Notes: generated from the sequence alone by a model not told the origin. 64,000 bases of DNA from Parachlamydiaceae bacterium (GCA_013821265.1 JACDHD010000005.1:236-64235); one strand, 5' to 3'; counted from the stretch's first letter, positions 1 through 64,000 are shown. Translations and numbers: made by a program.

Positions 1-22
1 CCGATGTCACAACGAACTGTGA

Positions 23-78
23 TGGGGTCGTCAAGCCGACCCCTATGAAAGCGGTGGCAAGCCACCGCACTCCAAAAA
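23..78. repeat. Hairpin-pair module (ggggtcg..cgacccc + gcggtggc-aa-gccaccgc)
   Basis: An inverted copy of the same two-hairpin unit occurs at 36106-36162. Confidence 0.8.
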
Positions 79-86
79 GAACATCT

Positions 87-2204
87 TTAAACTGCAGGAT
101 ACTTTGCTAAAATGGTCCGTGCATGATCTTTTAAATTTTGTTTGCTACTATTAAGCACCCTTTGCAACAGTTCTCTACCCTGCTCTTCTGGAATCTCAAG
201 AGCCTTAGTCTGACACCAATGCCCCAACAATAACGCCGCCTCCACCGATCCTTCTCGCGCTATTTTCATTAAATTATCGCGAAATGTGTCGTTATATTCA
301 GGATGAGTAAAACCTGTCGTGTCCTCAAGTAAAAAAGACAACTCATGCATTAATAATTGTAGACCTTTTTGGGGATCACAGGAGCCGTTCAACCCTATTA
401 TTAGCCCCCATGCAAGAAGTATTAAACCATCTGGACAACCATACTTTATACTCAAATACCAGCGCAATGTAAGCAAGTTTTGCTCTTTCTCTAAAGCCCT
501 TAAAACCAATTTGTAGACAAAGAGGGTGGCTTCAATCATTTTTGCCTCTAAGAATTGAGAAATACACTGTTCCTCTTTTTCTCTATCTAATGTCACTGCC
601 TGTTCATAAAGTCCCAAAGCCTTTTTACGATCAGCCTTTACTGCCACTCCGAACCAATAGCAATTCCCTAATGTAATTAAAGCTTTTGCAACAAATTTTT
701 TAAATTCTTGATTTTCAATTTTTAAGGCTTCTTCATACCATGAAGATTGCAACTGCAGCAGTTCAAAAATTTTTCTTCCCAAGAGCCTATCTTCGCCAAA
801 CTTCTCTTTGCTTTTAACATAGCGCTTAGGTTCTGCAGAAAATTTATCTACACGCACACGATTCATCAAATCATTTAATTCTTGAGGCTTCTCGATAAAA
901 TTTGTTTCGTAAATCCGGCTTAAAAGTTTGGGCAATCTAGCTGCCCGTTCATAGCATTCAAAGGCAGCCTGAAGATCTTTTTGAACGCCTACACCATACC
1001 AAAAGCAATTGCCTAATGTTGCCAGAGATGAAACATCGCCCTTATCTGCTAATGATCTAAGCATATCTACCAAGTGCTTTCCTAAAACTCTGCTCGCTTG
1101 ATTATCAGCCATCCGTTCAGCTCTATAAGCTATCTCTTCATCATTTTCTTTTTCTTCTGCTTCCTCAATTACTTCTTCATCTACTTTTAATAAGCACAAC
1201 AAATCGGAAGTCTTCTCACCTATACGGTATTCCCCGCATTGGTATAGTAGATATCGTTCATATGCTGTAATGAGCAAAGGTGGGACAAAAGCTTCTTTAT
1301 GTTTTTTTATTTCTGCTAGGAGTTCTCCCGGCTTCATCCCCATAAGAATAGATCCTTCCTTATCCTCATCTTCAATTTCAAGAGCCTCCTCTCCTTCTAA
1401 AAACTCGGTTAGCCACAACAGCCAAATAGTATTTGAAATACCAATATCTTCGAATTTGAGGTTAATTCCACATGCATGATTGACCCACAGCTGCACAGCC
1501 CTTGCAGGACAAGAAGGAACACTAGGGGAAGACGACATAAATGATGATGTTTCAAAGAATGGCTTAAAGAAATCAAACGATTTTAAAAAAGCAGAATGAA
1601 CAGGAACCATACCATCATAACATTGAATAAAAGTATCATGACCTTTTTGACAGACCTCTTGGAAATAAGCCTTTTGTGTTTCTCTAACACTTTCAGGCCA
1701 ATCCCCCGTAATCTCGTAATGGATACCGTCATAACTTTCGTAAGCAAAGTGAGATGCTGAGTCTTTTTTTATAGCCTCCATCATTTTTTCATTTGAATCT
1801 TTCACTTGTTCATTTTCTTGCCTAATTGAATCTAGACCCCGCTCAAAAGCTTTGTGGGCAATATTTAAGATAGCATCAGCTTCTCCCTTCAATTGGGAAT
1901 ATCCGCTAAAAAAGGCATGCAAATGATTCAACGTTTCTAATTGATTGCGCACACCTTCATGATTTCTTTTTAATGTTCCTTCGAAAAATTGTACGGTAAA
2001 AATCGCAAGTGCCTTAATGCGTTGATGCTCAGGTTTATAAAAGTTAGAAATCCAACTAAGAATCCAAAAACATCCAGATTGCTTACGCAACACCACTAAC
2101 TGTTTTGTCTGATCTTCATTAGAAACAACCTGGTATTTTGAACTACTCCTTCCTAGTTGAGAAAGCTGATCACACGTTGTTGTAAAATAATCGAGTCTAT
2201 TCAT
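87..2204 (-). CDS. Eukaryote-like BTB/POZ-like + Sel1-repeat protein (candidate effector)
   Basis: 705-aa ORF. The mid-region DTFIQCYDGMVPVHSAFLKSFDFFKPFF ... NTIWLLWLTEFLEGEEAL has the pattern of a BTB/POZ core. The C-terminal half carries Sel1-type repeats (LGNCFWYGVGVQKDLQAAFECYERAA; LGNCYWFGVAVKADRKKALGLYEQA). The N-terminal layout parallels the adjacent ORF 2207-3463. Confidence 0.6.
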   Translation of the reverse strand: MNRLDYFTTTCDQLSQLGRSSSKYQVVSNEDQTKQLVVLRKQSGCFWILSWISNFYKPEHQRIKALAIFTVQFFEGTLKRNHEGVRNQLETLNHLHAFFSGYSQLKGEADAILNIAHKAFERGLDSIRQENEQVKDSNEKMMEAIKKDSASHFAYESYDGIHYEITGDWPESVRETQKAYFQEVCQKGHDTFIQCYDGMVPVHSAFLKSFDFFKPFFETSSFMSSSPSVPSCPARAVQLWVNHACGINLKFEDIGISNTIWLLWLTEFLEGEEALEIEDEDKEGSILMGMKPGELLAEIKKHKEAFVPPLLITAYERYLLYQCGEYRIGEKTSDLLCLLKVDEEVIEEAEEKENDEEIAYRAERMADNQASRVLGKHLVDMLRSLADKGDVSSLATLGNCFWYGVGVQKDLQAAFECYERAARLPKLLSRIYETNFIEKPQELNDLMNRVRVDKFSAEPKRYVKSKEKFGEDRLLGRKIFELLQLQSSWYEEALKIENQEFKKFVAKALITLGNCYWFGVAVKADRKKALGLYEQAVTLDREKEEQCISQFLEAKMIEATLFVYKLVLRALEKEQNLLTLRWYLSIKYGCPDGLILLAWGLIIGLNGSCDPQKGLQLLMHELSFLLEDTTGFTHPEYNDTFRDNLMKIAREGSVEAALLLGHWCQTKALEIPEEQGRELLQRVLNSSKQNLKDHARTILAKYPAV

Positions 2205-2206
2205 AG

Positions 2207-63121: not shown

Positions 63122-63197
63122 ATATTTCGCTCAAAAATCCTCTATTGCCTTTAAACATCTTATAATTTATCTAAAACTTATCTAACAAGGAGAATTT

Positions 63198-63875
63198 ATG
63201 AAGTCTTTACTACCTGTGTTGTGCTCTGTTTTTATGGTTAGCGCAAGTCTCGTTTACGCAGACTACGAAGCGAAAGATTTTAATTATCTTATCGGCAACG
63301 TTCCTGGACTGGACGATGAACTTCTAAAAATGCACTTTAAGCTCTATCAGGGATACGTTAACAATTCAAATACCCTCCTTAAAAAGCTGAAAGATTTGAG
63401 CGAAAGCGGCCAAGGAAAGACTCCTGAGTATGCCGGGTTGAAAAGAATGCTGGGTTGGGAATTTGATGGCATGCTGCTGCATGAGTACTACTTCGACAAT
63501 TTAGGAAAAACAGAAATGCTCTCCAAAGATTCTGCTTTCATGAAACGTATAGACCAAGATTTTGGCAGTTTCGATGCATGGAAAACGGACTTTGTGAATA
63601 CAGGAAGCATTCGTGGAATTGGCTGGGTTGTCACCTACATGGATCCTAAACAGGGCCGTTTGATCAATGAATGGATCAACGAACATGATGTGGGGCACCT
63701 TTCTGGAGCGACTCCAATCTTGATAATGGATGTGTTCGAACACGCTTACATCACACAATACGGCTTGGATCGTGCAAAATACATTGAGACTTTCTTCAAT
63801 AACATTAACTGGAAGAAAGTGGCGGAACGCTATGAGAAGCCCGTGAAGGTTCCTGCGCCTGCTGTTGGCAAGTAA
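63198..63875 (+). CDS. sodA: Fe/Mn-family superoxide dismutase with an N-terminal signal peptide
   Basis: 225 aa. DVFEHAYI (Asp/His ligands), the HEYYF His ligand, the first-helix His in LKMHFKLYQGYV, and INWKKVAERY. Signal-like N-terminus MKSLLPVLCSVFMVSASLVYA. The Fe-versus-Mn isoform cannot be decided from sequence, so the symbol is tentative. Confidence 0.8.
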   Translation: MKSLLPVLCSVFMVSASLVYADYEAKDFNYLIGNVPGLDDELLKMHFKLYQGYVNNSNTLLKKLKDLSESGQGKTPEYAGLKRMLGWEFDGMLLHEYYFDNLGKTEMLSKDSAFMKRIDQDFGSFDAWKTDFVNTGSIRGIGWVVTYMDPKQGRLINEWINEHDVGHLSGATPILIMDVFEHAYITQYGLDRAKYIETFFNNINWKKVAERYEKPVKVPAPAVGK

Positions 63876-63892
63876 TAGGAGAAGCTTTTCTT

Positions 63893-63990
63893 ATTGGACG
63901 TTGGACATGGACGAATTTGGACTGATTGAGACGATTGCATAAGTCCCATCGTCCTTTTCCGTGCCCGTGCCCGATTCGCTAAAAAAATGA
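63893..63990. repeat. Concatenated modules at the window edge (TTGGAC, gagacgattgcataagtc, GTCCTTTTC, CCGTGCCCG, gctaaaaaaa)
   Basis: ttattggacgttggacatggacgaatttggactgattgagacgattgcataagtcccatcgtccttttccgtgcccgtgcccgattcgctaaaaaaa. The element is probably cut by the window end. Confidence 0.75.
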
Positions 63991-64000
63991 CGTAAACCGT

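Follow-up and report, generated by a model that had tools for sequence, protein, structure and literature searches.

Foldback repeats in the intergenic spacers of a Parachlamydiaceae chromosome segment: probable gene-less members of a cassette class resembling 23S rRNA intervening sequences

The 23S rRNA intervening sequences have terminal inverted repeats that pair into a stem (28 bp in Coxiella) and enclose either an S23p (PF05635) open reading frame (ORF) or nothing. They are cleaved by RNase III, occur sporadically, have seemingly been transferred horizontally and are regarded as selfish, while their origin and mechanism of mobility are unknown (PMC4990558). These sequences, found in Salmonella, Leptospira and Coxiella, are the closest described system to the intergenic repeats analyzed here, which lie in a 64-kb chromosome segment (the window) that, judged by its proteins, belongs to an undescribed environmental chlamydia of the Parachlamydiaceae. 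The foldbacks among these repeats whose arms are built of tandem oligomers (class A) are probably ORF-less members of an intervening-sequence-like class of foldback cassettes that colonizes intergenic spacers. With the intervening sequences they share the long stem of terminal inverted repeats, and an ORF of the same family (PF05635) is enclosed in two relatives (L042 and L043), not in the window. Unlike them, the window elements are found between protein-coding genes or inside operons and not in rRNA helices 25 or 45; no rRNA was detected in the 64 kb (Rfam 15, both strands) and all repeat copies lie between protein-coding genes. The arms are moreover tandem oligomers in nested and mosaic arrangements, and a second cargo family occurs, the PD-(D/E)XK gene referred to as GxxExxY.

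Several other systems were compared. Repetitive extragenic palindromes (REPs) are imperfect palindromes of 20-40 nt with a flanking GT[AG]G, which replicate as inverted doublets and without duplications. The gene of a REP-associated tyrosine transposase (RAYT) is flanked by inverted REP units (PMC3116915). As in the bacterial interspersed mosaic elements (BIMEs) and the REP-doublet (REPIN)-RAYT systems of E. coli and Pseudomonas, the repeats studied here are dense intergenic units in mosaic clusters, with operon locations, a flanked gene and no duplication. Unlike those, their arms are not palindromes and lack GT[AG]G, the associated genes are not Y1 transposases, and the cassettes are multi-copy and common to several phyla; REP/BIME-RAYT is a good functional analogy, but the defining features of that system are absent from the tract arms.

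Correia elements of Neisseria carry a TA duplication, a conserved body and hairpins that are RNase III substrates, and Rickettsia palindromic elements (RPEs) insert in frame into genes. Like these miniature inverted-repeat transposable elements (MITEs), the window repeats are small, non-autonomous, bounded by terminal inverted repeats, co-transcribed with their neighbours and hairpin-forming, but they are duplication-free, their loops are often unrelated and their arms are tandem repeats. A kinship with the REP/BIME, Correia and RPE elements named in an earlier reading of the sequence alone (the sequence-only reading) was not supported, the arms being neither self-palindromic nor accompanied by the GTAG signature. 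Eukaryotic Foldback (FB) transposons also have long inverted arms of tandem short motifs around a variable or absent centre; as elements of another domain of life with Mutator-like element (MULE)-like transposase cargo and target-site duplications, they offer an analogy only.

Related repeats are said to include the short tandemly repeated repetitive (STRR) heptamers of cyanobacteria, reportedly described by Mazel in 1990, and the small dispersed repeats of Nostoc, reportedly described by Elhai in 2008. The TAACTGA repeats of Beggiatoaceae and the heptamer repeats of Nostoc are treated as unexplained direct repeats with a possible regulatory role, and the papers on them make no link to inverted partner arms or enclosed small genes (PMC4679880; 10.1101/2022.06.06.494920). 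The class A repeats resemble the STRR, Beggiatoaceae and Nostoc repeats in their tandem 7-nt motifs, intergenic location, patchy distribution over phyla and unexplained function. They differ in that the earlier descriptions place direct repeats close to start codons and give them a regulatory reading. The link between inverted arms and PF05635 was seen here in Nostoc, Trichormus, Anabaena, Calothrix and others.

Repeats were detected using Tandem Repeats Finder, an inverted-repeat finder and direct reading of the sequence. Four kinds were distinguished: tandem-oligomer-arm foldbacks (class A), GC-hairpin composites (class B), double hairpins (class C) and longer units (class D); of these, class A stands out as unusual. 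The basic class A unit is a directional arm of 25-45 nt, composed of tandem 6-9-nt motifs: GCACGG and GATCAA hexamers, CGCAGAGA and CACAGAGG octamers, GGACGAAAA nonamers and TTGGACA heptamer-like tracts. Arms are purine- or pyrimidine-rich and not self-complementary, and two opposed arms give a stem of 24-45 bp. They occur as inverted pairs in both polarities (the pairs spanning both strands), as solo copies and in nests, and the mosaic arises from younger elements inserted in the loops or arms of older ones. Eight GCACGG arms were counted at five loci, nearly every copy reading, from outer to inner end, CGTGCC CGTGCC CGTGAG CGTGCC (CGTGCC) CGA. CGCAGAGA, CACAGAGG and GAGACAATTGCATAAGTC were found at three loci each, TTGGACA at two, and GGACGAAAA at two loci plus one fragment; the GATCAA tract, listed earlier among the recurring modules, is present at one locus only.

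For each of 19 intergenic regions and 14 coding controls, the best inverted-repeat score was compared with those of 40 dinucleotide shuffles. The score exceeded all 40 shuffles in 13 intergenic regions (z 6.8-40), whereas z did not exceed 3.1 in the coding controls. Following folding with RNA parameters, the minimum free energy (MFE) of the tract-arm foldbacks and of a 237-nt palindrome was at z -7 to -20 relative to shuffles, and that of the two GC-hairpin arrays tested at z -4.2 and -7.8. The listed repeats amount to about 3.8 of 8.9 kb of intergenic DNA (about 43%). The presence of dense intergenic hairpin repeats was confirmed: the finders and direct reading recovered all tracts and hairpins that had been listed, almost only in intergenic DNA, and the modular, mosaic, mostly inverted-pair arrangement was borne out. 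The window DNA was 100% identical in two independent assemblies (NCBI GCA_020064125.1, contig JAITZQ013989108.1, and Logan), so the repeats are no assembly artefact. Logan contigs break off within GCACGG and GATCAA tracts, which suggests further tract copies elsewhere in the genome, of which about 70 kb of sequence was covered in total.

The nuo operons of eight chlamydial relatives were compared. Where nuoG meets nuoH, the window carries a CACAGAGG foldback with a 35-nt loop and no gene, L036 carries GCGAAGAC arms around a 7-nt loop and L037 carries GCACGG arms, whereas L039 and L041 have no spacer whatsoever. In L044, CACAGAG-type arms enclose a gene of 128 aa belonging to PF13366 (PDDEXK_3, 'GxxExxY'; E 2e-44), and in L042 and L043 heptamer (TTCAGAA-type) arms enclose a gene for a PF05635 '23S rRNA intervening-sequence protein' (E 2e-32 and 2e-35). 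Absence, four different empty hairpins and two gene-bearing cassettes at one junction argue for insertion and turnover and not for a conserved host structure, and such presence or absence with differing modules agrees with the non-autonomous behaviour proposed from the sequence alone. As no PF13366 gene occurs in the window and one stands at the orthologous junction of L044, the window copies are taken as ORF-less members. The arms bracket PF13366 genes, PF05635 genes or nothing, a layout that matches an rRNA intervening sequence except that it is found between protein-coding genes.

In Parachlamydiaceae, the nuo operon was seen to be a repeated landing site, with five different hairpins or cassettes at nuoG|nuoH and one more at nuoF|nuoG. 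The sites were L042 7063-7198 and 9468-9979, L043 2082-3068, L044 1-447, L036 9905-9977 and L037 7893-8024.

The GxxExxY protein, of about 125 aa, belongs to the PD-(D/E)XK nuclease family and has an invariant D...E-x-K triad. Its structure model (predicted local distance difference test score, pLDDT, 92.7) has Cas4 and lambda exonuclease as nearest folds, with weak similarity, and a sequence search of the PDB gave no match. The protein has thousands of homologues at 55-70% identity, named from Chloroflexi, Phycisphaerae, KSB1 and others, and the family comprises 23,787 clusters at 50% identity. Eighty metagenomic loci were collected, 77 of them testable, and arms were counted within 10-150 nt of the gene. 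Inverted arms built as (T)TCACC-(RCRGAG plus 1-3 nt)n bracket about 68 of the 77 genes, with units such as ACCACAGAGACACAGAGG, ACCGCAGAGACGCAGAGG, ACCACGGAGACACGGAG and ACCGCCGAGACGCCGAG; 46 passed a strict anchored test. None of the 80 loci appeared to have a ribosomal setting. Named hosts include Bernardetia, Bacteroides finegoldii, where the cassette follows radA and precedes the adjacent gene, and Sphingomonas, where it separates fabD from fabG. Similarly, inverted heptamer tracts bracket PF05635 genes in 11 cyanobacterial plasmids from Nostoc, Trichormus, Aulosira, Anabaena, Calothrix, Geminocystis and Stanieria, the heptamer being lineage-specific (TCAGGAG, GGTGACA, GGGTGTA, GGGAAAA or GCAGAGG). 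A Gemmatirosa plasmid, unannotated and with estimated gene boundaries, has heptamer-like tracts at its PF05635 gene and was left unscored. The arm period is 8-9 nt in 38 of 46 GxxExxY cassettes and 7 nt in 11 of 12 four-helix-bundle cassettes.

Several observations on individual cassettes were made. Four orthologous GxxExxY cassettes (L053, L068, L106 and L110) are positioned precisely at the start codon of the host gene that follows, with ATG repeated on both sides (ACATGATTCACC...GGTGAACATG). Many top GxxExxY representatives (P0246-P0260) are 260-295 aa long with two matched stretches each, being either tandem fusions or gene calls that read through adjacent cassettes. Four-helix-bundle cassettes occur inside CRISPR-Cas operons at L128 595-951 (between cas10 and cmr3) and L133 298-666 (beside cas4); PF05635 (23S_rRNA_IVP) genes had been noted as intruders in cas operons (PMC3936711), and PDDEXK_3 has been listed as a family without known function that underwent multiple horizontal transfers (PMC3424549). 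In the literature found, 'GxxExxY' receives passing mentions only, and no account of tandem-oligomer arms around GxxExxY or four-helix-bundle genes was encountered, an earlier description outside the searched literature being possible.

The octamer arms of the window have the 8-9-nt unit, the RCRGAG core and the complementary partner of the GxxExxY cassettes. All three CACAGAGG foldbacks open with an ACCAC end and have the same units as the cassette arms. The copy at 39064-39193, between the divergent M3-peptidase gene and nuoA, has the full outer ends (tttttcACCAC...GTGGTgaaata; TTCACC...GGTGAA; MFE -90 kcal/mol, z -20.2). The nuoG|nuoH copy (45973-46150, z -17.7) keeps, at 45973-46123, the ACCAC...GGTGGT core with T- and A-run flanks (ttttttACCAC...GGTGGTaaaaaa), its loop being homologous to that of 39064-39193 and an arm remnant lying beside it at 46135-46150. 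At 54869-55113, the left end is present (ttttttACCAC) and the right end is degenerate. The CGCAGAGA copies are without the TTCACC outer end. The CACAGAGG and CGCAGAGA families are the gene-less form of a phylum-spanning GxxExxY cassette and not private to this genome, and the hexamer, nonamer, TTGGACA and GATCAA families share the foldback architecture.

The GCACGG arm extends beyond this genome without cargo. A genome-contig scan with a 21-nt GCACGG pattern returned mostly chance coding matches in high-GC genomes and about ten informative loci; a scan of viral contigs with the arm gave three matches, all chance coding and rejected. The arm, with the same GAG variant in its third unit, occurs in the window and in the Parachlamydiaceae VLC_099 and L037. 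Further carriers are metagenome-assembled genomes (MAGs) with the labels Verrucomicrobia and Flavobacterium, an unclassified bacterium of 47% GC and a MAG whose 61% GC excludes a chlamydial origin. It is identical over 27-33 nt in unrelated genomes. The labels of MAGs may err, and the GC contents of L020 and L011 support a spread beyond chlamydiae. Every instance examined was gene-less between its GCACGG arms. In L011, a 63%-GC deltaproteobacterial MAG, an array of units of about 100 nt was observed at 5150-5600 and 6900-7130, each unit combining CACGAG/CGTGAA hexamer tracts with an internal hairpin; the array may be a high-GC relative of the GCACGG arm.

Arm pairing was analyzed in 43 anchored arm pairs, selected for at most 5 mismatches in 24. 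The 24-bp stem was 92% paired, a percentage partly built in by this selection. Two-sided (compensatory) changes were found at 18 of 24 stem pairs, in 249 cells against 91 +/- 9 in shuffles, far above slid registers. G-U pairs were rare in the arm stems (0-5 per pair), while plain mismatches numbered up to 14. This pattern suggests that one arm is copied from its partner as DNA, rather than that selection acts on the RNA.

Evidence of movement came from a filled and an empty site. In Picosynechococcus PCC 7003, a four-helix-bundle cassette including its arms lies between cas10 and cmr3; PCC 7002 lacks it, its flanks being 95.8% identical, and about 20 nt of host sequence have been replaced without a clean duplication. 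Gain or loss affects the entire unit. In PLSDB, no empty counterpart was found for the GxxExxY cassettes of Bacteroides and Sphingomonas. Among 44 gene-bearing cassettes, no excess of direct repeats was present at any fixed offset; the target-site duplications that the sequence-only reading had recommended looking for were not seen. In 51 of 67 cases, the host ORFs beside a GxxExxY gene point in the same direction as the gene (p = 2e-5), and all annotated cassette examples are co-oriented and within operons, which suggests read-through expression of the cargo. Loops of ORF-less copies are lineage-specific and conserved within a genome (three copies in L054; the 39064 and 45973 copies of the window), and internal sequence is likewise kept in the GCACGG cores. 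Such conservation within genomes implies that the empty form amplifies on its own.

In the process we envisage, the cargo gene would be expressed by read-through from host promoters, and the stem would allow the host transcript to loop out the insert, which RNase III might cleave as it does intervening sequences. The arms would be re-copied at the DNA level during hairpin-dependent, duplication-free spread or a gene-conversion step, in which the Cas4/lambda-exonuclease-like nuclease may take part, and ORF-less copies would be carried in trans or simply persist. Any host regulatory role would be secondary. More tentatively, and with rather less confidence than the assignment of the class A repeats, these elements could constitute one unrecognised class of foldback cassettes over many phyla, characterized by inverted tandem-oligomer arms with a cargo-linked unit length (8-9 versus 7 nt), duplication-free and operon-co-oriented insertion and abundant ORF-less progeny.

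A number of points weigh against assigning the class A repeats to such cassettes. The mode of movement is wholly inferred, and the covariation set owes part of its pairing to the way its members were chosen. No PF13366 or PF05635 gene or remnant was detected in the window loops by phmmer and tblastn, and no cargo was found for four tract families out of six (the GCACGG hexamer, the nonamer, TTGGACA and GATCAA). Of these, all but GCACGG, together with the CATAAGTC module, were missing from the other fetched genomes. A simple element with terminal inverted repeats would not be expected to show both arm polarities, as is the case here, and the loops of the three CGCAGAGA hairpins are mutually unrelated, typical MITE families being different. 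Arms of the CAGGAT type enclose different contents, hicAB in L036 and fragments of PDDEXK_3 in L043, so that arms are not strictly tied to one cargo. Finally, two other repeat types, the GC hairpins of class B and the units of 115 nt, may be separate systems without any relation to the rest.

The CAGGAT-type cases are as follows. At L036 18546-19357, a hicB-hicA toxin-antitoxin pair lies between 75-nt inverted arms that are 91% complementary, and at L043 10354-10825 PDDEXK_3 fragments are flanked by arms of this type. Weak minus-strand matches to the cargo genes at 63323-63535 of the window were rejected as spurious, as they lie inside the superoxide dismutase gene.

The alternative that the hairpins are host-serving RNA structures evolved in place (stabilisers, processing sites or translational regulators), with the motifs as protein- or ribosome-binding sites, is unlikely. 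The hairpins do lie in transcribed spacers, including within the nuo operon, several relatives have some hairpin at nuoG|nuoH, the purine-rich arms contain Shine-Dalgarno-like GGAG/GAGG motifs, and a regulatory function has been suggested for the heptamer repeats of Beggiatoaceae and Nostoc (PMC4679880; 10.1101/2022.06.06.494920). However, two relatives are spacer-less at this junction while others carry unrelated motifs or a selfish gene, arms of 27-33 nt are identical in unrelated genomes, G-U pairs are rarer than plain mismatches, and nesting and solo arms look like insertion debris. Rfam 15 at the gathering threshold gave no match in the 64 kb on either strand. The CACAGAGG and GCACGG foldbacks have a T run 5' and an A run 3' on both strands and are thus not intrinsic terminators in either direction; a terminator scan of 32000-47000, which detects loops of 3-8 nt only and is blind to long-loop hairpins, placed none on the foldbacks.

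Next in likelihood, and quite improbable, is a REP/BIME-like system with the arms as REP units, moved by a RAYT (Y1/HUH transposase) encoded elsewhere. Its appeal lies in the directional units, which stand single, head-to-head, tail-to-tail or in mosaics like REPs in BIMEs, in the lack of target-site duplications, as with HUH enzymes, in the gene between inverted units, which recalls the RAYT between REPs (PMC3116915), and in the GTAA/GTAG that precedes the class B hairpins. Yet no GT[AG]G accompanies the tract arms, which are not palindromes in themselves either, the genes between arms encode a PD-(D/E)XK nuclease and a four-helix bundle instead of a Y1 transposase, and no RAYT was present in the window or any fetched locus; the window contains no transposase at all, as had been stated before.

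Ordinary MITEs, that is, deletion derivatives of DDE-transposase insertion sequences that were repeatedly nested, would account for terminal inverted repeats, small size, intergenic location, nesting and the loops conserved within some families. They would also fit the 428-nt insert that interrupts a GCACGG arm, where the 24-nt terminal repeats are perfect and CG may be duplicated. This explanation is very improbable because target-site duplications are absent at any fixed offset in the 44 cassettes; the CGCAGAGA-family loops are unrelated, no transposase with matching ends was seen, and both arm polarities occur. Least probable of all is a non-mobile origin by replication slippage and intrastrand template switching that expand motifs and symmetrise quasi-palindromes in place, which fits the tandem-repeat arms, the unit variants mirrored in the partner arm, the DNA-like rather than RNA-like complementarity and the apparent lineage specificity of several modules, but which alone cannot explain identical arms in unrelated genomes (the same arm, variant unit and end sequence recur across species and GC contents, which also poorly fits the in-situ recombination- or RNA-structure-driven origin once considered), the consistent link to two cargo families with a fixed period or the presence or absence of whole units between strains.

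The other tract-arm elements of the window are located as follows. A solo nonamer tract (ACATTAGAG)n of 4.8 copies, without inverted partner nearby, lies at 3557-3599. At 24839-25150 (MFE z -11.2) a nested foldback has outer arms GATTGCATAAGTC...GACTT, middle arms at 24870-24899 and 25100-25129 and inner hexamer tracts (GATCTT)n at 24900-24916 and (GATCAA)n at 25028-25084. A three-level nest at 32428-33042 (MFE -232 kcal/mol for 32428-33045, z -17.3) has outer GCACGG arms at 32476-32512 and 33006-33042; the 428-nt insert lies within the right arm, with its terminal inverted repeats at 32587-32610 and 32991-33014, and carries the inner CGCAGAGA arms at 32743-32777 and 32849-32883. At 34141-34345 (MFE z -13.0), GCACGG arms (34141-34164 and 34331-34345) surround nonamer GGACGAAAA arms (34164-34207 and 34287-34330). 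A CGCAGAGA foldback of reversed polarity, with the pyrimidine-rich arm first, occupies 36195-36340 (MFE z -11.7), and a short one, also reversed, 61846-61950 (MFE z -7.1). At 36402-36612, a CAGGAT-type arm remnant (36402-36445) is followed by a single unit of about 115 nt (36446-36549) and a solo GCACGG arm (36575-36612).

Between convergent genes, a GCACGG foldback at 53282-53441 (MFE -108 kcal/mol, z -11.5) contains a core of about 70 nt that is homologous, as reverse complement, to 32508-32575. A four-level nest with TTGGACA tracts at 54647-55195 (MFE z -11.9) contains an unpaired (TTTTCGTCC)5 run at 54767-54811, a 22-nt perfect repeat GAGACAATTGCATAAGTC at 54812-54833 and 55145-55166, and CACAGAGG arms at 54875-54908 and 55074-55107 with an inner hairpin at about 55000-55025. 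At 63893-63990 (plus strand), the left half of a nest, cut by the window end, combines a TTGGACA tract, GAGACGATTGCATAAGTC, CGTCCTTTT and a GCACGG arm.

Class B units are composites of 110-130 nt with 3-4 GC hairpins (CAGNNCG-loop-CGNNCTG) and GTTACCTT linkers, and four copies are present in the window; one such unit is also found in a relative. They are located at 3640-3728 (within 3557-3728, together with the solo nonamer tract), at 5270-5395 (plus strand, four tandem hairpins, MFE z -7.8), between zwf and opcA at 13310-13420 (plus strand) and, in reverse orientation, at 15540-15700 (minus strand). Class C is a 60-nt double hairpin just beyond gene ends, with two copies. The motifs of the first (ggggtcg..cgacccc plus gcggtggc-aa-gccaccgc) are at 22-70, just beyond the stop of the gene at 87-2204, and those of the second, in the other orientation, at 36112-36160; both look like tandem terminators.

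Class D comprises the unit of about 115 nt and the unit on both sides of ispH. The palindrome formerly given as 227 bp does exist, its length being corrected to 237 nt (11239-11475; MFE -141 kcal/mol, z -17.7) and its structure to two inverted units of about 115 nt with (GCGAAG) tracts and an inner hairpin at 11321-11394; the unit at 36446-36549 is its third copy. The ispH-flank unit (64-75 nt), also listed in the earlier reading, was found in three copies within 22044-23305, two of them inverted around ispH (22044-22107 and 23149-23212) and a third, direct copy at about 23240-23305. Part of a second ispH, 92.7% identical to 22665-22990, is present at 16409-16733 inside a 1.3-kb gap (16321-17603). 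Since inverted repeats of 64 nt enclose the intact ispH, a cassette-like relocation or duplication of this gene is possible.

The window has a GC content of about 43%. It encodes typA, gyrB-gyrA with dciA, ispH, zwf-opcA-pgl and a complete nuoA-N operon, together with a thiazole/oxazole-modified microcin (TOMM, YcaO) cluster, a Protochlamydia-type outer-membrane protein (Pom), superoxide dismutase and cytochrome c peroxidase; a tRNA scan of the window gave no match. NuoH is 80-84% identical to Chlamydiales and Parachlamydia MAG proteins, and the five window proteins tested were all singletons when clustered at 90% identity. The TOMM-type cluster at 17604-21551, found here in a chlamydia, consists of DUF6176, a fused cyclodehydratase/YcaO and a ThcOx-like dehydrogenase, and occupies the lowest-GC part of the window (35-39%). 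At 56832-61792, three tandem paralogues of 544-547 aa with a mutual identity of 37-52% precede the CGCAGAGA hairpin and have no match in Pfam or NCBIfam.

The repeats explain roughly 40% of the intergenic DNA here, and they probably explain much spacer DNA in other environmental chlamydiae, cyanobacteria and Bacteroidota. Arms of this kind break short-read assemblies, create spurious ORFs and N-terminal extensions and could pass for regulatory elements. Within nuo and other operons, an effect on mRNA processing is to be expected from stems of 30-45 bp. A context is also gained for two very large orphan gene families, the arms being a concrete cis-element and a candidate substrate for the GxxExxY nuclease. 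The findings point to a widespread, barely described kind of mobile DNA. If true, a single class would unify rRNA intervening sequences, STRR-type heptamer repeats and the scattered GxxExxY and 'S23p' genes, and would imply a new hairpin-dependent mechanism of mobility or gene conversion.

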